A stretch of 45,879 nucleotides of DNA. Source: a virus. Positions 7,104 through 39,912 of this stretch are shown here, piece after piece; within the stretch, counting starts at the first letter, position 1; the number at the start of each line of letters is the position of its first letter. Made by a program: the position numbers and the translations under genes. The notes under the pieces were generated by a model. It worked only from the letters and a program-made list of their open reading frames with translations. It had not been told where the DNA came from and did no database searches. Location of the stretch: the UHGV virus genome UHGV-0132371; one strand, 5' to 3'.

Positions 7104-7838
7104 TTAAAGTCGATTATATTTAATTGACTCATGAATCAATGCCTTACCCATGACATAAAGCTGATCCTGATTCGCCTCATTGATGTACCACTTTTCATAT
7201 GCAGAGTTATCAGACAGAACAGCGAGCTTGTCACCTTGCATCTGTAGGCGCTTAACATGAAACGTCTTACCGTATACGAAAGAGTAAACACCGTCGGTCT
7301 GGAAGTGACGAACTGAGATGTCGACGAATAGTCGATCACCAGAAACGAGGGTTGGTGACATACTGTCGCCGTTAACAGTCATGACCTTCACATCTTCTGG
7401 ATCGCGATTTCCAAAAAGCACTCGGGCATGTTCAGTCGTGAACTCAATGGCGTACAAGACTTCAACATAGTCAGAAAGCATGTAGGTGCCAGGTCCAGCA
7501 CTGACAGATAAATCCAGAACTTCAACGCGATAAACATCCTGCTCTGGCTTATTAACCATGCGTTTCACTTCCCCTGTATCTGTTGGCTCACCAACACCGT
7601 ATTCCAGCCATTCGGCACGTACACCAAGTACTTTACTGAGAGCCACTATTTTCTGACTGTCCGGTATGGCCTGGGCGTTGAACCACTTCCAAACTCCAGG
7701 TGTAGTGATCTCCACCCCGGCTTTATTAAGCAGGTCTGCAAGGTTTTTGTTTCGTCCCCGACCAGTTAATCCAGCAAGTTGACAAACTTGCAGCAGCCTA
7801 GTCGTGAAACCTTCTTTCGTTTCGTCTCTCTTAACCAT
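7104..7838 (-). CDS. cI: CI-like prophage repressor (N-terminal HTH, C-terminal S24 LexA-type peptidase domain)
   Basis: VNGDSMSPTL serine motif and downstream HVKRL lysine; divergent from a Cro-like gene. Confidence 0.85.
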   Translation of the reverse strand: MVKRDETKEGFTTRLLQVCQLAGLTGRGRNKNLADLLNKAGVEITTPGVWKWFNAQAIPDSQKIVALSKVLGVRAEWLEYGVGEPTDTGEVKRMVNKPEQDVYRVEVLDLSVSAGPGTYMLSDYVEVLYAIEFTTEHARVLFGNRDPEDVKVMTVNGDSMSPTLVSGDRLFVDISVRHFQTDGVYSFVYGKTFHVKRLQMQGDKLAVLSDNSAYEKWYINEANQDQLYVMGKALIHESIKYNRL

Positions 7839-13537: not shown

Positions 13538-13558
13538 TTGTATGGAGCGCTGAGCATA

Positions 13559-14251
13559 ATGAATTTACAAGAACTGGAATTTACGCGGATTGAACTGCGC
13601 CGCGCGCTGGCGGATTTATCAGGCTCGACAAAAGGACAGCTGCAGGCGTTCAGTGAGCATCCACCAGCAGATAAGAACAAATACCCCCGGCACCATCCTG
13701 AAATCGTCATGGAGGGTGGGGAAGGTTGTGGATCCAAGGTTGTAAAAACGATGGCCACTCCACTTTATGTTCTTGAGACAAGGAGCCGTCGCCGACCTTT
13801 ACCGCCTATTAAGGATGCGGAGTTCGCTTGTTCAGCATGGCGTCGTTCGGTCAATGGTCTTGGGGAGCATTTGCAGGCATGGGTGCGGTACTGCTATGGG
13901 CATGACCTTGCTTTCCGGTACCAGAGGTTAATGTGCCAGCACGTATGGGAAGAGTTTCAGCGTCAGCATAGCGGCAAAAAAATCCAGGACCGTGTCACTA
14001 AAAAACTGGTAGGGCTTGTCTGGCTGGCGGCGCAAGAAGTTGCTGCCTCGCGTAATAACGATACCTATCAGGAGTATGCTGGTGCAGCTCTGGCGCGCAT
14101 GGTCAGCGTTGAGCGTTCCACCTGGCTCAGAGTGTATTCATGCCACTGGGCGGCTTTCAAAGCGTCGTTTACTGAGATGGACAGCCAGGCACTAAGCGAA
14201 ATTTTGTCACGGTACGAAGAGTACCAAGAACTGAAAGTGGCGGAAATGTGA
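13559..14251 (+). CDS. Q: Late-gene antiterminator Q-like protein
   Basis: Position before the lysis genes; the only ATG start is at 13559 (track begins at a TTG at 13538); family from memory. Confidence 0.55.
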   Translation: MNLQELEFTRIELRRALADLSGSTKGQLQAFSEHPPADKNKYPRHHPEIVMEGGEGCGSKVVKTMATPLYVLETRSRRRPLPPIKDAEFACSAWRRSVNGLGEHLQAWVRYCYGHDLAFRYQRLMCQHVWEEFQRQHSGKKIQDRVTKKLVGLVWLAAQEVAASRNNDTYQEYAGAALARMVSVERSTWLRVYSCHWAAFKASFTEMDSQALSEILSRYEEYQELKVAEM

Positions 14252-14903: not shown

Positions 14904-15803
14904 ATGCCTAATTGGAATCATGTTATGGGCGAGGTTGCAGTCCTCGCCCAAAAAAGCCCCCTAGACACAGTAAGAAGCAAATATATCAAAGAGATGTCGC
15001 AGATGACCGGACGTAACGTCATTGCGTACTACTCGGGGTTCCTTCAGAATAGCTCGCATTTATGTACTATGTCTGATGATGATAAAAATGGATTCATGAC
15101 AGCGGTTCATGGGCTCGATGCCACGAAGGGGCTTGATCTCATTTTGCATACACCTGGTGGGGATATCGCCGCCTTAGAATCGATAGGTTATTACTTGAGA
15201 GCTAAGTTCGGTAACGATATCCGTGCTTTTGTCCCCATGATATCTATGTCAGCAGGGACTATGTTGGCTTGTTGTGCAAAAGAAATCATCATGGGGAAAC
15301 AATCAAATATCGGTCCTTTCGATCCCCAAATAGGTGGCGTGCCAGCACATGGCGTGATTGAAGAAGCGCAGAAGGCTATGCAAGATATTATTAAAAACCC
15401 TGCGACTGCTGCGTATTGGCAATTTACACTGTCTAAACTCAATCCGACGTTCATTGGTGAGTGTGAAAAGGCAATCCAATGGGCAACAACAATTGTCAGT
15501 GAATGGCTAATTACTGGTATGTTTGATGGGGATCCAGATGCCCAGCAAAAGGCTGAAGCTATTTGTTCAAGCCTGAATAACCACAGTTCAACTTTTGCTC
15601 ATGCACGTCATATTCACAGTGATAAAGCTAGCCAAATTGGTTTGAAAATCATACCGATGGAAGCAGATCAGGCATTACAAGATATTGTGTTAACGATACA
15701 TCATAGCTATATGCACACTTTTGGTGGCAGTACAGCAGCCAAGATTATCGAGAACCATGAGGATGGCCGAAGAGTCTGGCATGTCCCTCCTGGAAACGCG
15801 TAA
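14904..15803 (+). CDS. S49/SDH-family ClpP-fold serine peptidase (second copy besides gpC)
   Basis: 299 aa with LILHTPGGDI and MISMSAGTMLACCA motifs typical of ClpP/SppA-fold peptidases; AT-rich; bracketed by terminators. Confidence 0.6.
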   Translation: MPNWNHVMGEVAVLAQKSPLDTVRSKYIKEMSQMTGRNVIAYYSGFLQNSSHLCTMSDDDKNGFMTAVHGLDATKGLDLILHTPGGDIAALESIGYYLRAKFGNDIRAFVPMISMSAGTMLACCAKEIIMGKQSNIGPFDPQIGGVPAHGVIEEAQKAMQDIIKNPATAAYWQFTLSKLNPTFIGECEKAIQWATTIVSEWLITGMFDGDPDAQQKAEAICSSLNNHSSTFAHARHIHSDKASQIGLKIIPMEADQALQDIVLTIHHSYMHTFGGSTAAKIIENHEDGRRVWHVPPGNA

Positions 15804-15824
15804 ATTTCAGATTTTATTAAAAAT

Positions 15825-15852
15825 GCCCTGACCTGAAAATCAGGGCTTTTTT
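15825..15852 (+). terminator. Rho-independent terminator
   Basis: GCCCTGA...TCAGGGC hairpin followed by TTTTTT. Confidence 0.6.
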
Positions 15853-16021
15853 ACGCCTTCGTTCCTTCAATATGGAGGAGTTTTGCTGTGGAATGGGCGG
15901 CTGGTGGGTGTTGTAGCACCCGACCAACCATCAGCTCATGCTTACAGGTCACAAGCTAACCAAGGCCCATTGCTTTAGCGCAAAAGCAAAGAGAGCCTAT
16001 CAGAGTTACGCTTATTGATCT

Positions 16022-17074
16022 ATGAAAAATACTGTAAATATAAACAGTGTTGAGTTAGTCAACGCTGATAGCCTGCAATACATCGCCACTCTCCCTGATA
16101 ACTCCATTGACCTGATAGTCACGGATCCGCCGTACTTCAAAGTGAAACCAAACGGCTGGGACAACCAATGGAAAGGGGATGATGATTATCTTCGATGGCT
16201 TGATATGTACCTCGCACAATTCTGGCGAGTGCTTAAACCTGCCGGCAGTCTTTATCTTTTCTCCGGTCACCGCCTGTCGGCAGACATTGAGATCATGATG
16301 CGTGAGCGGTTCAACGTCCTGAACCACATCATCTGGGCTAAACCGTCTGGCCGCTGGAATGGCTGTAATAAAGAGAGCCTTCGCTCTTACTTCCCTGCAA
16401 CAGAGCGCATCCTGTTCGCTGAGCATTACCAGGGGCCGTATAAACCAAAGAGCGACGGGTACGCTGAGAAGGGAAGCGAGCTGAAGCAGCATGTAATGAC
16501 TCCCCTAATTTCTTATTTCCGGGATGCACGTGAAGCGCTTGGCATATCCTCAAAACAAATAGCCGATGCGACTGGAAAGAAGAACATGGTGTCTCACTGG
16601 TTCAGCGGTAGCCAGTGGCAATTACCGAATGAATCCGACTACCGGAAACTTCAATCCCTTTTCACGCAGGTAGCCATCGAAAAGCACCAGAACGGCGAAC
16701 TGGCAACACCACACCACCAGCTGGTGGCCCTGTGGCATTCGTTAAATCGCAAGTATTCAGAGCTGCTCGAAGAGTACAAATCGCTTCGGCGGCATTTCTC
16801 TGTTTCCGTATCCGTTCCTTATACCGACGTCTGGACACATAAACCCGTTCAGTTTTACCCAGGTAAACACCCATGCGAAAAACCCGCTGACATGTTGCGG
16901 CAGATCATCAACGCCAGCAGTAAGCCTGGTGATGTGGTGGCTGATTTCTTTATGGGGTCCGGTTCGACCGTGAAAATCGCGCTGGAACTTGGCCGCCAGG
17001 CTATCGGCGTTGAACTCGAGGAAGACAGGTTTAGCCAGACGGTGGAGGAAATAAGGGCGTTAACAGGGGAGTAA
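16022..17074 (+). CDS. Orphan DNA methyltransferase (beta-class N6-adenine/N4-cytosine; DPPY before FxGxG)
   Basis: 350 aa with TDPPY near the N-terminus and DFFMGSGST near the C-terminus; no adjacent restriction endonuclease. Confidence 0.8.
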   Translation: MKNTVNINSVELVNADSLQYIATLPDNSIDLIVTDPPYFKVKPNGWDNQWKGDDDYLRWLDMYLAQFWRVLKPAGSLYLFSGHRLSADIEIMMRERFNVLNHIIWAKPSGRWNGCNKESLRSYFPATERILFAEHYQGPYKPKSDGYAEKGSELKQHVMTPLISYFRDAREALGISSKQIADATGKKNMVSHWFSGSQWQLPNESDYRKLQSLFTQVAIEKHQNGELATPHHQLVALWHSLNRKYSELLEEYKSLRRHFSVSVSVPYTDVWTHKPVQFYPGKHPCEKPADMLRQIINASSKPGDVVADFFMGSGSTVKIALELGRQAIGVELEEDRFSQTVEEIRALTGE

Positions 17075-33980: not shown

Positions 33981-34691
33981 ATGCGTCAGAAAACCATCGA
34001 TGCGATTATGGCGCATGCTGCAGCTGAATATCCTCGTGAGTGTTGCGGCGTGGTGGCGCAAAAGAGCCGGGTAGAGAAATATTTTCCATGTAGTAACCTC
34101 GCTACCGAGCCGACAGAACATTTTCACCTGTCGCCAGAAGACTATGCAGCTGCTGAGGACTGGGGTACGGTGATCGCCATCGTTCACAGTCACCCTGACG
34201 CCACTACGCAGCCGAGCGAACTGGATAAAGCGCAATGCGACGCAATGCTTTTACCCTGGCATATTGTGAGCTGGCCGGAGGGGGATTTACGCACCATCCA
34301 GCCGCGCGGGGAACTGCCGCTGCTGGAGCGCCCGTTCGTGCTTGGCCACTTCGATTGCTGGGGGCTGGTAATGAGCTATTTCCGGCAGACCCACGGCATC
34401 GAACTCCATGATTACCGCGTCGATTATCCCTGGTGGGAGAACAGCTATCCGGACAACTTCTATCAGGACTGCTGGTACGAGTGCGGATTCAGGGAGTTTG
34501 ACGGCCCGCCTCAGGAAGGTGATCTGGTCATCATGCAGGTGCAGGCCGATAAGTGGAATCATGCCGGGATATTGCTGGAGGGTAACATGCTGCTGCACCA
34601 TCTTTACGGGCATCTGAGTCAGCGTGTGCCCTATGGCGGATACTGGCAGGAAAGAACTATGAAGGTTCTTCGCCATAAATCTCTGTGCTAA
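33981..34691 (+). CDS. K: Tail assembly protein gpK (JAB/MPN plus NlpC/P60-like)
   Basis: Lambda K-like N-terminus (MRQ.TID.I.AHA..E.P.ECCG...HSHP). Confidence 0.8.
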   Translation: MRQKTIDAIMAHAAAEYPRECCGVVAQKSRVEKYFPCSNLATEPTEHFHLSPEDYAAAEDWGTVIAIVHSHPDATTQPSELDKAQCDAMLLPWHIVSWPEGDLRTIQPRGELPLLERPFVLGHFDCWGLVMSYFRQTHGIELHDYRVDYPWWENSYPDNFYQDCWYECGFREFDGPPQEGDLVIMQVQADKWNHAGILLEGNMLLHHLYGHLSQRVPYGGYWQERTMKVLRHKSLC

Positions 34692-34723: not shown

Positions 34724-35239
34724 ATGAAATATTTAATTTTAATACTTGGTGTTTTATTTTTGAATGGTTGTATTCCAAGGGGGATGGTTGACGGTGAAAA
34801 ATACACAACTGAATACCGAGCAAGAGAAAAGTGTGCATTAGATTTTGAGGTGAGAAATAAATTTCATCAATTTGCTTCTGCCTCTAATTTTAAAGTGGTT
34901 AGGGTTGAGGGTGGTAATTATAAATGTATACAGGTTTTCGGCGATGAGTTAAAAAGGCAACAGATGGACTCAAATGATGAATATGAGGCCGACAGAAGTG
35001 GATTAACACTTAGCCAATATAGAGATAAAAAAGAAAGTGATTATGAATCATTGAAGAAAGCATACATCAACTACTATCAGGATAAAGAAAGAGTTTACGA
35101 AGAATATCGTAAAGACGGGAAACTACACACTGATATTTCTTCAGGTCCAGATGGTGTCATTAGAGCAACGTCAATACAGGGGAATGCTCGTTGCGATACT
35201 GTTATAGGGAATACTGGAGGAACATCATCATGTGAATAA
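34724..35239 (+). CDS. Lipoprotein cargo gene (moron) inserted between tail genes K and I
   Basis: Signal peptide with lipobox LNGC; highly charged mature domain; markedly AT-rich; no lambda counterpart at this position. Confidence 0.6.
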   Translation: MKYLILILGVLFLNGCIPRGMVDGEKYTTEYRAREKCALDFEVRNKFHQFASASNFKVVRVEGGNYKCIQVFGDELKRQQMDSNDEYEADRSGLTLSQYRDKKESDYESLKKAYINYYQDKERVYEEYRKDGKLHTDISSGPDGVIRATSIQGNARCDTVIGNTGGTSSCE

Positions 35240-35268: not shown

Positions 35269-35859
35269 ATGGCCGAAAGAATGACCCGTATTGAGCTTGG
35301 TGGCGTGCTTGGGAAAACATTCGGTAAAGTTCACCACCGCCTGATTTCCCGTGTGAACGAGGCGAGTGTTGCGCTGGCAAAGACGGTTCCGGGATTTGAG
35401 CAGTTTATGATCTCCAGCCAGCGCCGTGGGCTCACTTATTCCGTATTCAAAGGGAAAAAGAATATTGGTGTTGATGACCTTGGCTTCCCGGTCACCGGCG
35501 ATGTTATCCGCATTGTCCCGGTCATTATCGGGAGTAAAAAAGCGGGTGTACTACAGACTATTTTAGGTGCGGTTCTGGTTGCTGTCGGTGTGGTTCTTAA
35601 TTTCACGCCCTGGGCTGCGGCTTCACCATTCTTCTACAAACTTGGTGCCGCAGTCATGCTGGGCGGCGTTGTCCAGATGCTTTCCCCTCAACCAGCAGGT
35701 CTGGCCAGCAAACAAAGCTCTGATAACCGCGCCTCCTACGCGTTTGGCGGGGTCACAAACACCGCTGCGCAGGGCTACCCGGTACCACTTCTTTATGGTC
35801 GCCGGCGAATCGGCGGTGCGATTATTTCTGCCGGGATATATGTCGAAGATCAGCAGTAA
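35269..35859 (+). CDS. I: Tail assembly protein gpI
   Basis: Lambda I-like. Confidence 0.8.
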   Translation: MAERMTRIELGGVLGKTFGKVHHRLISRVNEASVALAKTVPGFEQFMISSQRRGLTYSVFKGKKNIGVDDLGFPVTGDVIRIVPVIIGSKKAGVLQTILGAVLVAVGVVLNFTPWAAASPFFYKLGAAVMLGGVVQMLSPQPAGLASKQSSDNRASYAFGGVTNTAAQGYPVPLLYGRRRIGGAIISAGIYVEDQQ

Positions 35860-35879
35860 GCTAAGTTAAGGAGATGTGT

Positions 35880-36029
35880 ATGTCTTTTGAGTCACGAGTA
35901 GAAAAAACTGAAAATGAAACATCTGAAGTTAATGAAACGGTCCCGCATGAGACCGTAGAGTACGATGCTTCAATGACATTAGGCGTCAATAAGCTTCATA
36001 TTTTTGACGATGTCTTGAATTTGTGGTGA
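35880..36029 (+). CDS. Small acidic hypothetical protein (49 aa)
   Basis: Strong AAGGAGA RBS; AT-rich; 3' end overlaps the convergent minus-strand ORF by 51 nt. Not in the ORF track. Confidence 0.3.
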   Translation: MSFESRVEKTENETSEVNETVPHETVEYDASMTLGVNKLHIFDDVLNLW

Positions 36030-36194
36030 GTTTGTCTTTGATAGGATTTCAATAACTTGTTGCCTTGTATCTACTGGCAATGCTGCTGTTAATACCATTG
36101 TAACTTGTCTTAGAGCCACAATTTCTAAAGCGATTTCTCTAGGAATATTTTCGTCAAGAGTAAATCTAAAATCCACGAACTTTTCTTCGATCAT
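35979..36194 (-). CDS. Small hypothetical protein (71 aa), opposite strand inside the tail gene cluster
   Basis: AT-rich ORF with GGAG RBS; convergent with the 49 aa ORF. Confidence 0.4.
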   Translation of the reverse strand: MIEEKFVDFRFTLDENIPREIALEIVALRQVTMVLTAALPVDTRQQVIEILSKTNSPQIQDIVKNMKLIDA

Positions 36195-36325
36195 CTTATT
36201 ACTCCATTTTAACCGGGTACTTCAGCCATCCCTCGGTCAGTTAACGCCAGAGGCCTACCACTGGCGGGCTGAGCTTACACATTAACCAGGGATTCCTGTT
36301 ACCAACAGCCTGATATTTAAACAGT

Positions 36326-36349
36326 AGCCGCCTTCGGGTGGCTTTTTTT
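36326..36349 (+). terminator. Strong rho-independent terminator immediately upstream of J
   Basis: AGCCGCC-TTCG-GGTGGCT hairpin (TTCG tetraloop) followed by TTTTTTT, 12 nt before the J start. Confidence 0.55.
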
Positions 36350-36360
36350 ATGGACGCGAT

Positions 36361-39300
36361 ATGGCTACAGAGAAAGTATTAAAGGGGCGCAAAGGCGGCA
36401 AATCCAGTTCACGAACTCCTACCGAACAGCCTGATGATCTGCAATCTGTAGCGAAGGCAAAAATCCTCGTTGCGCTTGGCGAAGGGGAGTTCGCAGGGCA
36501 GCTAACCGGCAAAGATATCTACCTGGACGGAACGGCGCTGGAGAATGCCGACGGTTCCCAAAACTTCAGCGGCGTGACGTGGGAGTTTCGCGCGGGGACG
36601 CAGGCTCAAAAATATATTCAGGGTATTCCCGGTACCGAAAACGAAATCAGCGTGGGAACTGAGGTATCAAGCGCTACAGCCTGGACGCGCACGTTTACCA
36701 ATACGCAGCTTTCAGCAGTTCGTCTGCGTCTGAAATGGCCCTCGCTTTTCAAACAGGAAGACGACGGAGATCTGGTGGGTTACTCGGTCAATTATGCGAT
36801 TGACCTGCAGACGGACGGCGGCACATGGCAGACGGTACTCAATACCAGCGTGACCGGCAAAACGACGTCTGGTTATGAGCGCAGCCACCGTATCGATTTA
36901 CCGCAAGCTGGCAGCACCTGGACAATACGTCTGCGTAAGATTACCTCTGATGCCAACAGCGCGAAGATCGGCGACACGATGACGCTGCAGAGCTTCACCG
37001 AGGTGATTGACGCCAAGTTACGATATCCAAACACAGCGCTACTCTACATCGAATTCGATTCAAGTCAGTTTAACGGCTCTATCCCGCAGATCTCCTGCGA
37101 GCCCCGCGGCCGTGTTATCCGCGTTCCAGATACCTACGACCCTGAAACCCGCACTTATAGCGGTACATGGACCGGTGCGTTTAAGTGGGCATGGACGGAT
37201 AACCCTGCGTGGATTTTTTACGATCTGGTTGTTTCTGACCGGTTCGGCCTCGGGCACCGTTTGACCGCTGCGAATATTGATAAATGGACGCTTTATCAGG
37301 TTGCCCAGTATTGTGATCAGATGGTACCAGACGGCAAAGGGGGCAACGGTACCGAACCACGTTATACCTGCAACGTGTACATCCAGGACCGAAACGACGC
37401 TTATACAGTCCTGCGTGATTTTGCGGCCATATTCCGTGGCATGACGTACTGGGGAGGCGATCAGATCGTTGCTCTGGCCGATATGCCCCGAGATGTTGAT
37501 TACAGCTACACGCGCGCCAACGTTGTTGGCGGTCGCTTCACCTATTCAAGCAGCACCACGAAAACCCGCTACACCACAGCGCTGGTTTCATGGTCAGACC
37601 CGGGTAACGCTTATGCCGACGCGATGGAGCCGGTATTTGAGCAGGCGCTGGTAGCGCGATACGGCTTCAATCAGCTGGAAATGACAGCCATCGGCTGCAC
37701 CAGGCAGTCAGAAGCGAACCGAAAGGGGCGCTGGGGCATTCTCACCAACAACAAGGATCGCGTTGTTTCGTTTGATGTCGGGCTGGACGGAAACATTCCG
37801 CAGCCGGGCTACATCATCGCCGTGGCAGACGAGCTGCTTTCCGGAAAGGTTATGGGCGGCCGCATCAGCGCCGTTAACGGTCGCGTTATCAAACTTGACC
37901 GCGTAGCTGATGCAGCACCAGGTGATCGCCTTATTCTCAACCTGCCTTCCGGAGCGTCGCAGAGCAGGACCATTCAGGCCGTGAACGGGGAATCAGTCAC
38001 AGTCACCACGGCATACAGTGAGACGCCACAGGCCGAAGCTGTTTGGGTGGTTGAATCTGACGAGCTTTACGCGCAGCAGTATCGTGTTGTCAGCGTCTCC
38101 GACAACGGTGATGGCACTTTCTCAATCACCGGCGCATGGCACGACCCGGATAAATATGCCCGCATCGATACCGGAGCCATCATTGACCAGCGGCCGGTGA
38201 GCGTGATCCCGCCTGGTAACCAGTCGCCGCCTGCGAACATCGTGATCAGCTCGTTTTCCGTGGTGCAGCAAAATATCAGCGTCGAAACGATGCGCGTGAG
38301 CTGGGACCAGGCGCAGAACGCTATCGCCTATGAAGCGCAATGGCGCCGCAACGACGGGAACTGGGTTAACGTGCCGCGCAGCTCCACAACGTCATTCGAC
38401 GTACCGGGAATATATGCCGGGCGCTACCTGGTGCGCGTGCGCGCAATCAATGCCGCAGAAATCTCGTCCGGATGGGGCTATTCAGAAGAGAAAACGCTGA
38501 CGGGTAAAGTGGGCAATCTACCGAAGCCGGCTGGCTTCATCGCTTCTGAAAATGTGGTTTTCGGCATCGAGCTGAACTGGGGATTCCCGGCGAATACCGA
38601 CGACACGCTGAAGACGGAAATTCAGTACAGCCTGACCGGTACTGATGGTGATGCGATATTGCTGGCCGATGTGCCATACCCACAGCGTAAATATCAGCAG
38701 ATGGGATTAAAGGCGGGGCAGATATTCTGGTACCGCGCGCAGCTGGTTGACCGAACCGGTAACGAGTCCGGTTATACCGGCTGGGTTCGTGGTCAGGCCA
38801 GTATCGATGTTTCTGATATCACCGATGTGATCCTGGAGGACATCAAAGGGTCTGAGACGTTCAAGGACCTGATCGAGAATGCCGTTGATGCCAACGAAAA
38901 AATTGCTGGCATGGCTGACGACATCAAACAGGCCAACGATGAACTTGAGCTCCAGGCGCAGGAAATCGCAAAAAACGCGCAGGACATTGGGCAGGTTCAG
39001 ACCAGTGTTAATGAGCTTTCGAGCACTGTCGGTGATGTGTCGTCTTCTCTCTCAGAGCTTGAGCAGACCGTCGCAACGGCTGATACCGCGCTGGGCCAGC
39101 GAATCGACAGCATCAGCGTGTCTATGGACGGCATGACGGGCGGGGTTAAGAACTCAGCCATTGCCATTATCCAGAACGGGCTGGCGCAGGTGGCCGCGCG
39201 TAAAACGTTGTCTGCATCGGTCGCCGGCAACAGCGCGAATCTGGACCGTATTGATGAGGTGATTGTCAACGACAGGGAGGCAACGGCGCGCTCGCTGCTG

Positions 39301-39912
39301 AGCCTGCAGACGGACGTCAACGGCAACAAGGCATCCATCAACAGCCTGAATCAGACGTTCTCCGACTATCAGCAGGCCACCGCCACGCAGATAGACAGCA
39401 TCACGGCGACCGTGAACGGGCATACCTCCGCCATCACCACTAACGCTCAGGCTATAGCCAACGTTAATGGCGAACTCAGCGCGATGTACAACATCAAGGT
39501 TGGTGTCTCCAGCAACGGGCAGTATTACGCCGCGGGGATGGGTATCGGCGTGGAGAATACGCCATCCGGCATGCAGTCGCAGGTTATCTTCCTGGCTGAC
39601 CGCTTCGCCGTCACCACGGCAGCCGGAAATAGCGTAGCTTTGCCGTTCGTGATCCAGAACGGGCAGACATTCATCCGGGCCAGCTTCATCCAGGACGGCA
39701 CCATTGAGAACGCCAAAATCGGCAACTATATCCAGTCCAACAACTATGCAGCTGGTTCTGCTGGCTGGAAGCTTGATAAAGGGGGGACGTTTGAGAACTA
39801 CGGTTCGACTGCTGGTGAGGGAGCCATGAAACTGACAAATCAGACGATCAGCGTCAAAGATGGCAGTAATGTTCTTAGGGTGCAGGTTGGCCGATTAACG
39901 GGAGTATTCTGA
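36361..39912 (+). CDS. J: Tail tip / host-specificity protein gpJ
   Basis: 1183 aa, lambda J-like across the N-terminal two thirds; C-terminal receptor-binding part diverged. Confidence 0.9.
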   Translation: MATEKVLKGRKGGKSSSRTPTEQPDDLQSVAKAKILVALGEGEFAGQLTGKDIYLDGTALENADGSQNFSGVTWEFRAGTQAQKYIQGIPGTENEISVGTEVSSATAWTRTFTNTQLSAVRLRLKWPSLFKQEDDGDLVGYSVNYAIDLQTDGGTWQTVLNTSVTGKTTSGYERSHRIDLPQAGSTWTIRLRKITSDANSAKIGDTMTLQSFTEVIDAKLRYPNTALLYIEFDSSQFNGSIPQISCEPRGRVIRVPDTYDPETRTYSGTWTGAFKWAWTDNPAWIFYDLVVSDRFGLGHRLTAANIDKWTLYQVAQYCDQMVPDGKGGNGTEPRYTCNVYIQDRNDAYTVLRDFAAIFRGMTYWGGDQIVALADMPRDVDYSYTRANVVGGRFTYSSSTTKTRYTTALVSWSDPGNAYADAMEPVFEQALVARYGFNQLEMTAIGCTRQSEANRKGRWGILTNNKDRVVSFDVGLDGNIPQPGYIIAVADELLSGKVMGGRISAVNGRVIKLDRVADAAPGDRLILNLPSGASQSRTIQAVNGESVTVTTAYSETPQAEAVWVVESDELYAQQYRVVSVSDNGDGTFSITGAWHDPDKYARIDTGAIIDQRPVSVIPPGNQSPPANIVISSFSVVQQNISVETMRVSWDQAQNAIAYEAQWRRNDGNWVNVPRSSTTSFDVPGIYAGRYLVRVRAINAAEISSGWGYSEEKTLTGKVGNLPKPAGFIASENVVFGIELNWGFPANTDDTLKTEIQYSLTGTDGDAILLADVPYPQRKYQQMGLKAGQIFWYRAQLVDRTGNESGYTGWVRGQASIDVSDITDVILEDIKGSETFKDLIENAVDANEKIAGMADDIKQANDELELQAQEIAKNAQDIGQVQTSVNELSSTVGDVSSSLSELEQTVATADTALGQRIDSISVSMDGMTGGVKNSAIAIIQNGLAQVAARKTLSASVAGNSANLDRIDEVIVNDREATARSLLSLQTDVNGNKASINSLNQTFSDYQQATATQIDSITATVNGHTSAITTNAQAIANVNGELSAMYNIKVGVSSNGQYYAAGMGIGVENTPSGMQSQVIFLADRFAVTTAAGNSVALPFVIQNGQTFIRASFIQDGTIENAKIGNYIQSNNYAAGSAGWKLDKGGTFENYGSTAGEGAMKLTNQTISVKDGSNVLRVQVGRLTGVF

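Follow-up and report, generated by a model that had tools for sequence, protein, structure and literature searches.

Location and gene content of the locus

The DNA analysed here (45,879 nt, referred to as the window) is a lambdoid prophage with the tail genes K (33981–34691), I (35269–35859), and J. The interval between I and J is 501 nt long and holds two convergent ORFs and a terminator with a UUCG loop. The genes and terminators considered below are as follows:

7104–7838, minus strand: CI-like S24 repressor
13538–14251: Q antiterminator gene (PF06323, E 1.8e-39)
35880–36029, plus strand: acidic small ORF of 49 aa, with SD AAGGAG at 35868–35873
35929–35956, minus strand: intrinsic-terminator-like hairpin of the reverse gene, lying within the plus-strand ORF, 22 nt beyond the stop codon of the reverse gene
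35979–36194, minus strand: reverse-moron gene of 71 aa, family of HK022 gp23 and SPN3UB_0033 (PHROG 6806), with SD GGAG at 36205–36202
36326–36349, plus strand: intrinsic terminator with a 7-bp stem, UUCG loop, and seven T's, including the stem-closing T
36361–39912, plus strand: tail tip gene J (Pfam Phage_Tail_Tip and related families in an orthologue)

The small ORFs of the initial annotation were confirmed in the sequence. The plus-strand ORF starts from an ATG behind its SD and encodes 49 aa, of which 11 are acidic and 3 basic; an upstream ATG at 35874 would extend it to 51 aa. The minus-strand ORF encodes 71 aa (36194–35979), and the two overlap tail to tail by 51 nt (35979–36029).

Several other features of the window were recorded. 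A terminator-like hairpin (GTCGCCGGCGAATCGGCGGT followed by GCGATTATTT) lies at 35798–35817 on the plus strand, inside the 3' end of gene I, and is probably a chance match in the coding sequence of that gene. A second AT-rich insert (34724–35239, plus strand, GC content 0.31–0.39) is located between K and I. It encodes a protein of 171 aa with a lipoprotein-type N-terminus (MKYLILILGVLFLNGC) and has no terminator of its own before I. Neither Pfam, PHROG, and PADLOC profiles nor tblastn of 50,697 phage records gave a match to this protein. The K–I site carries other cargo elsewhere: a YebO-like protein of 74 aa in HK022 and HK75, a lipoprotein-like protein of 148 aa in mEp390, and a protein of 131 aa in E. 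coli EC23HZZ201. Between Q and the lysozyme gene, which is also present in the window, the plus strand encodes a ClpP-like SDH-type serine protease (14904–15803; PF01972, 2.4e-18) and a DNA methylase (16022–17074; PF01555, 1.2e-42, with a sub-threshold helix-turn-helix match). The genes at 14904–17074 are probably accessory; their position downstream of Q is a classical site of morons.

The insert between I and J as a moron cassette

As a moron cassette of two genes, the insert belongs to the type represented by genes 22 and 23 of HK97 and HK022. Over its entire length, mEp506 is 98.8% identical to it, and four E. coli prophages are 99–100% identical. HK97 and HK022 have the same layout at the same place; their records name gene 22 "moron product" and gene 23 "reverse moron product", and also annotate a putative terminator before J. 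These genes 22 and 23 are reportedly described in Juhala et al. 2000.

Four phages (HK75, mEp235, mEp390, and HK633) have an empty site with 52 nt between I and J, holding only the terminator (GGCCACCUUCGGGUGGCUUUUUU) and the ribosome-binding region of J. In about 40 HK97-like phages, identity to the window starts exactly at the terminator stem (36326/7). Since the empty-site phages keep only the terminator and identity resumes at 36326/7, the insert was delimited to 35860–36325.

Morons have been defined as extra DNA between genes that are adjacent in related phages, further characterized by deviant base composition, their own promoter and terminator, and expression from the repressed prophage (PMC3594210, citing Juhala et al. 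2000). The insert is extra DNA between neighbouring genes, as is evident from the empty site in four phages. Its GC content over 35850–36225 was 0.35–0.39 vs. 0.50–0.59 in the flanks, which together with the empty site bears out the earlier description of an AT-rich insert wedged between I and J. It has a terminator of its own in the minus-strand hairpin at 35929–35956, and the plus-strand terminator lies at 36326–36349. Judged by comparison with other phages, the homologues of the minus-strand ORF, the base exchange in the terminator stem, and the recurrence of the layout in HK97, HK022, and mEp506 are features beyond chance.

The 71-aa reverse gene

On comparative evidence, the 71-aa ORF is a real gene. 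Its orthologues in Kosakonia and other bacteria are 63–65% identical. A search with the family profile, which recovered the window protein at 5.5e-20, gave 61 matches; all were from Enterobacterales, labelled "hypothetical", and without a Pfam domain. The protein matched phrog_6806 (E 1.6e-6) and HK022 gp23 (3.9e-8) and falls into the same BLAST cluster as the latter, with full-length significant similarity placing it with HK022 gp23 in PHROG 6806. SPN3UB_0033 is 29% identical to the window protein. The family has 17 distinct members among the loci listed. In the identical E. coli prophage, PGAP calls the gene as WP_053263845.1.

The AlphaFold (AF2) model had a pLDDT of 84.7 and helices at residues 18–37, 41–52, and 57–66; the product is predicted to be a soluble three-helix protein. 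Fold searches with this model gave nothing informative. The mEp506 record labels the same protein DUF2594 (YecF-like), and we rejected this label after no DUF2594 match was obtained even at E <= 1. The PDB profile match to 3jqh (DC-SIGNR neck, E 5.5e-15) was also set aside, consisting of six weak matches of ~9 bits to a coiled-coil repeat of 23 residues and not reflecting homology.

The hairpin downstream of the gene (ACGGUCUC-AUGC-GGGACCGU, then UUCAUUAA, with UUCAUU after the stem) had a folding energy of −23.8 kcal/mol (z = −3.5), and none of 200 shuffles folded as well. Its stem is kept with changed bases in Kosakonia. Terminator-like hairpins were present in 30 of the 64 distinct regions downstream of cargo genes, compared with 2 of 64 shuffles.

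The late-strand small ORF and its relation to the reverse gene

Among the 133 related loci listed, 46 have a late-strand ORF before the reverse gene that starts with MTLEQRVEALEK or a conservative variant and has a conserved ribosome-binding site. Codon-position entropy in this family was 0.92/0.72/1.29, and because the third codon positions vary most, the N-terminus is considered coding. The window sequence MSFESRVEKTEN is a diverged and probably weakly constrained and decaying member of the MTLEQRVEALEK family. In the DNA alignment with the Kosakonia locus, the ribosome-binding site and first codons of the plus-strand ORF were homologous; the window ORF has a 66-nt in-frame deletion relative to Kosakonia and a different stop. 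BLASTP found no similarity between the plus-strand ORF and its positional counterpart at the orthologous locus of Kosakonia.

The left end of the cassette is itself conserved, with the ribosome-binding site CCGAAAGGCGGGAGAnnGTT followed by ATG ACT TTA GAA CAA CG (MTLEQRVEALEK). It was seen in loci L007, L012, L021, L054, and others, and in HK97 (L002, 1930–1960). The C-terminal sequences joined to it differ widely, and a domain like that of HK97 gp22 is among them. Because the left end joins differing C-termini, an exchange of cargo by recombination between conserved ends is suggested.

Both small ORFs could be read as chance ORFs in a non-coding AT-rich spacer. They are short, the DNA is AT-rich, and PGAP does not call the plus-strand ORF in the identical E. 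coli prophage. Against this reading, which we consider extremely improbable, stand the orthologues and 61 profile matches of the 71-aa ORF, along with its good SD, confident fold, and PGAP annotation. It is refuted for the minus-strand ORF and possible for the plus-strand ORF of the window alone.

The initial annotation had likened the pair to a toxin–antitoxin or a dedicated sense/antisense module. The 51-nt overlap is real and the layout recurs in HK97, HK022, and SPN3UB; moreover, because the ORFs overlap and the reverse terminator lies inside the plus-strand ORF, the two mRNAs would be partly complementary. However, members of the 71-aa family adjoin ORFs of the MTLEQRVE type, of the FYAP type (HK022), or of other types on the plus strand, or only the upstream backbone gene, that is, at least three unrelated plus-strand ORF families or none. 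The geometry ranges from an overlap of 81 nt to a gap of more than 100 nt, and not even the orthologous locus of Kosakonia preserves the plus-strand ORF. As for the proteins, neither resembles the small hydrophobic peptides of type I systems, and Pfam, PHROG, and PADLOC profiles gave no toxin, antitoxin, or defence match for either ORF. Since the two ORF families are not co-inherited, the toxin–antitoxin reading is unsupported and we regard it as very improbable. The most plausible reading of the tail-to-tail overlap is the close packing of two units that each have their own termination.

A conserved block upstream of unrelated reverse genes

The ~115 nt upstream of the minus-strand ORF (36195–36312) form a block that recurs well outside this prophage. 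The ~150 nt preceding J were found at 76–95% identity in HK97, HK022, ES18, Oslo, SPN3UB, HK633, mEp043/213, and CharmingMan, and the neighbouring ORFs differ among these phages. A pattern scan detected the block in more than 120 IMG/VR contigs and in 10 species-representative genomes, nine of them Enterobacteriaceae; among complete E. coli genomes, it was present in 13 of 5,426. A covariance model built from the family recognised the window copy with 77 bits (E 4.5e-18) and the diverged Kosakonia copy with 23.7 bits (E 3.6e-4).

The tenth species-representative genome (L139) is a 2.5-kb contig of a MAG labelled Mangrovimonas and the only non-enterobacterial match among those listed. Its covariance model score was low (25.9 bits) and its neighbouring ORF is 148 aa long; this copy may be a chance or partial match, contamination, or mis-binning.

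In all 133 listed copies with enough flanking sequence, the start of a minus-strand ORF (40 aa or longer) lies no more than 70 nt from the block. The cargo among the listed copies comprises 67 distinct proteins in 17 BLAST clusters, mostly 65–97 aa long and mostly helical as judged from the sequence. We tried to join the cargo into a single superfamily and rejected this, as hhalign merged few clusters and none with that of the window. Profile searches with ten representatives (Pfam, PHROGs, PADLOC) gave PHROGs of unknown function, one DUF1883, and one aspartyl-protease-like match. The block sites also vary: they lie before J, before L, between Rz and terminase, and elsewhere, with at least 13 different downstream genes.

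Two copies of the block were seen within 2–4 kb of each other in L016 (2245–2347 and 4297–4399) and L050 (289–393 and 4413–4518), and in SPN3UB and three E. coli genomes, BLAST placed the block at two positions. No second copy was found within the window.

In Rfam 15, the sole match in the window region was that of the terminator hairpin to isrD, below threshold (18 bits vs. a gathering threshold of 37), and five related loci gave nothing at E <= 1. A literature search that included sequence strings of the element found no paper on the block, and an earlier notice of the HK97/HK022 similarity is possible (Juhala 2000, Casjens 2005, Cumby 2012). As far as we searched, the shared leader does not seem to have been described as an RNA element.

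Structure and working strand of the leader

The block contains the following features:

36195–36276, minus strand: structured 5' leader of the reverse gene with hairpins H1 and H0, ending at the SD
36212–36237, minus strand: hairpin H0, loop GGGAUGGCUGA...
36245–36266, minus strand: hairpin H1, consensus loop GUGGGA, GUAGGC in the sublineage of the window
36279–36305, minus strand: candidate promoter of the reverse gene, −10 TAATGT at 36284–36279, −35 TTGGTA at 36305–36300, 15-nt spacer
36287–36315, no strand assigned: inverted repeat CAGG(G)...CCTG (CAGGG-N16-CCCTG), flanked by the invariant TTAACCAGGG

To assign the structure to a strand, 73 distinct block copies were aligned, five helices were defined, and the cells pairing on each strand were counted. 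Four helices gave the following values:

H1: paired in 98.3% of cells on the minus strand and 87.8% on the plus strand; 61 cells on the minus strand only, 0 on the plus strand only
H0: 85.8% on the minus and 77.2% on the plus strand; 44 cells on the minus strand only, 6 on the plus strand only
H2 (inverted repeat): 93.2% on the minus and 96.6% on the plus strand; 3 cells on the minus strand only, 18 on the plus strand only; these percentages reflect conservation only, and the 18 G.T cells are probably one event
Terminator: 79.7% on the minus and 82.6% on the plus strand; 5 cells on the minus strand only, 18 on the plus strand only, the wobbles in the latter being valid on the plus strand

The 61 cells of H1 are spread over five different pairs; in one of these, U.G is the majority state. 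Double changes from U-A to C-G also occur in H1, and four pairs of H0 are changed on both sides. Overall, 94.8% of cells were paired in the minus-strand alignment, compared with at most 48% in slid controls. Covariation was 0.122 vs. 0.087 in shuffles (0 of 500 reached 0.122), a comparison in which sequence relatedness can inflate the shuffle control. The loops are nearly invariant, with GUGGGA in H1 of 59 of 69 copies and GGGAUGGCUGAUUA in H0. The window variant has one A.C mismatch in H0 on the minus strand, and the folding of its own leader was no better than that of shuffles (z = −0.40). A pairing of 6 bp, UCAGCC/GGCUGA (36272–36267 with 36227–36222), would enclose H1 and possibly form a pseudoknot with the H0 loop; it never varies and so gives no covariation signal.

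The leader appears to be a conserved structure on the mRNA strand between promoter and SD, backed by covariation as expected for a cis-regulatory leader. Since the strands pair oppositely, the block combines a plus-strand terminator with a minus-strand structured leader that ends at the SD of the cargo gene. A five-codon uORF (MADYL) in the leader was also considered and rejected, because no spacing separates its SD from the ATG and at least four lineages have lost this ATG.

The block might instead encode a plus-strand sRNA ending at the UUCG terminator, for instance one of the Hfq type or one derived from the 3' end of a late or moron transcript. The terminator is strong, has a long U tail, and is preceded by H2 and an A/U-rich stretch; the plus-strand fold of 36195–36352 had z = −2.17, and the wobbles of H2 and H3 are valid on that strand. 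However, the plus-strand versions of H1 and H0 contain conserved C.A/A.C mismatches, and in one H1 pair the mismatch is the majority state. No conserved plus-strand promoter was seen, the left side being variable coding sequence. In addition, eight variants without the terminator keep the rest of the block, and Rfam gives no match. We consider such an sRNA quite unlikely.

A role of the block purely as DNA, be it a promoter that carries operator or IHF sites or a conserved linker through which homologous recombination exchanges cargo, would account for the invariant TTAACCAGGG, TCAGCC, and GGCTGA, which do not covary. It would also account for the inverted repeat, whose centre varies, and for the IHF-like match, whose position is fixed. 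The conserved ends and variable middle of the cassette would also fit recombination at the ends. The double compensatory changes in H1 and H0 speak against this reading, as do the one-sided transitions that keep minus-strand RNA pairs (61 vs. 0 in H1 and 44 vs. 6 in H0). It is weakened because a duplex DNA site does not predict strand-biased pairing transitions, and we judge it unlikely compared with the structured leader on the mRNA strand.

Leaders of mRNAs repressed by CsrA, such as that of glgC, carry GGA in hairpin loops and GGA in the SD. The family consensus of the minus-strand leader is alike, with GGA in the H1 loop, AGGGAUG at the H0 loop, and the SD AAGGA, 24–28 nt apart, whereas the H1 loop of the window (GUAGGC) is without GGA; the likeness is one of motif resemblance only. 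By this analogy, a CsrA-type RNA-binding protein might act on the leader, which we regard as rather doubtful.

Candidate promoter and inverted repeat

The candidate −10 element has the form TAANGT in 76 of 76 distinct copies, with a TTG-type −35 element at a distance of 15–16 nt. It is the sole candidate that is conserved, and a weak consensus match, below the standard scan threshold. Because the DNA beyond the block differs between sites, the leader is expected to be transcribed from within the block, and this weak candidate promoter would start the RNA right at UCAGCC. On visual inspection, no motif for sigma-54, sigma-32, sigma-E, or sigma-28 was recognised in the block.

An IHF-consensus-like sequence, TATCAGGCTGTTG (TATCAGGNTGTTG), lies at 36315–36303 on the minus strand over the −35 region and overlaps the inverted repeat. 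The motif WATCARNNNNTTR was matched at a fixed position in 62 of 78 copies, which reflects conservation only. The inverted repeat and the IHF-like site may represent an operator, part of the promoter architecture, or a plus-strand hairpin. The invariant TTAACCAGGG also holds a Dcm site, CCAGG, within the spacer of the candidate promoter (36286–36290) in every copy.

Terminator before J and its expected read-through by Q-modified polymerase

The TTCG terminator that the initial annotation had placed 12 nt before J is present and conserved, with 11 nt between its T-run and J. The stem-loop AGCCGCC-TTCG-GGTGGCT occupies 36326–36343 and is followed by six more T's and, after the 11 nt, by the J start codon at 36361. 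The stem pair 158/167 is G-C in 50 sequences and A-T in 20, a compensatory exchange across phages. With its G+C-rich hairpin, U-run, and compensatory stem, the element has the features by which Rho-independent terminators are recognised.

Since the same terminator precedes J in phages without the insert, it belongs to the tail operon rather than to the insert. In HK75 (L140), a near-copy of the terminator before J precedes gene I (the pair lies at 837–872 and 1500–1533; the window sequence compared is 36326–36363). In HK97-like phages, the terminators preceding these two genes share CCACCT(A/T)CGGGTGG, a T-run, and ATGGG(G/C)GCA..ATG, and lead into the ribosome-binding region of the next gene. 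Strong terminators punctuate the HK97-like tail operon even without a moron, which bears on the dependence of tail genes on Q.

Read-through of terminators by Q-modified polymerase is established lambdoid biology. J must be transcribed through its terminator because empty-site phages are viable, and because the Q gene is present in the window, Q-modified polymerase is the expected route of read-through to J.

Proposed model and its significance

We consider it likely that the locus consists of a moron cassette with an autonomous reverse unit, which carries a portable promoter–leader block and is placed before the tail operon's own terminator. The first unit would be a small late-strand ORF read from the late transcript, represented here by a decayed member of the MTLEQRVEALEK family. 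The second would comprise a weak sigma-70-like promoter, a leader of ~85 nt with two hairpins and a possible pseudoknot, an SD, the 71-aa gene, and its own terminator. The ~115-nt promoter-plus-leader block would serve as a portable expression platform placed before unrelated small cargo at many genome positions. According to this model, the reverse unit would be expressed in the prophage state, with the late operon shut off, and the leader would control the translation or stability of the reverse mRNA. During lytic growth, convergent Q-antiterminated late transcription would silence the reverse unit. The terminator would stop unmodified plus-strand transcription before J, and Q-modified polymerase would read through it.

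The locus itself is ordinary, being another moron/reverse-moron pair at a position already familiar from the genomes of HK97 and HK022. A broader reading concerns the block, which may represent an undescribed class of portable promoter and structured mRNA leader with two hairpins and a pseudoknot. It would put many unrelated small prophage genes in the late operons of enterobacterial lambdoid phages under common post-transcriptional control and, with the conserved left end (the ribosome-binding site and MTLEQRVEALE codons), define a cassette whose cargo is swapped by recombination. We offer this reading tentatively and judge it to fall just short of an even chance. If it is true, prophage accessory genes that share the promoter and leader would be a co-regulated set, and a single regulator or signal would decide when lysogens express the cargo. 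One reporter or one leader would then give an experimental handle on when and why morons are expressed, and the leader sequence would serve as a tag with which phage genomes could be searched for cargo genes of this kind.

Comparison with known systems

The closest counterparts are genes 22 and 23 of HK97 and HK022 (GenBank AF069529, AF069308), which are alike in position, convergent layout, and the ~150 nt upstream of J with the terminator. The HK97 products gp22 and gp23 are unrelated in sequence to the ORFs of the window. HK022 gp23 is a homologue of the window 71-aa protein (23% identity, PHROG 6806 being common to both). The plus-strand ORF of the window belongs to another family. The same block with a reverse small ORF is also found in ES18 (24/25), Oslo, and SPN3UB (0032/0033) between M and L and in HK633_067, mEp043, and mEp213 between Rz and terminase, at other insertion sites and mostly with other cargo.

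Type I and type II toxin–antitoxin modules resemble the locus in having two small adjacent genes with overlapping, partly complementary transcripts; the locus of the window differs from them in the lack of co-inheritance, of a toxin-like protein, and of profile matches. Convergent sRNA pairs of EHEC prophages (Tree et al., 2014, PMC4104026) likewise consist of convergent units at a moron site in a Q-dependent late operon. Those pairs are Hfq-bound sRNAs of 51–60 nt next to stx-type cargo at the PR' moron site, whereas in the window each of the two units has an ORF and is located at I|J, and neither sequence nor Rfam comparison shows a relation to those pairs. The classical lambdoid morons (lambda lom and bor, HK97 gene 15) are likewise extra DNA with deviant GC content and their own terminator, but they are single same-strand units without a common regulatory block. 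The cassette of the window is unlike them in having one leader for many cargos, on the strand opposite to late transcription.
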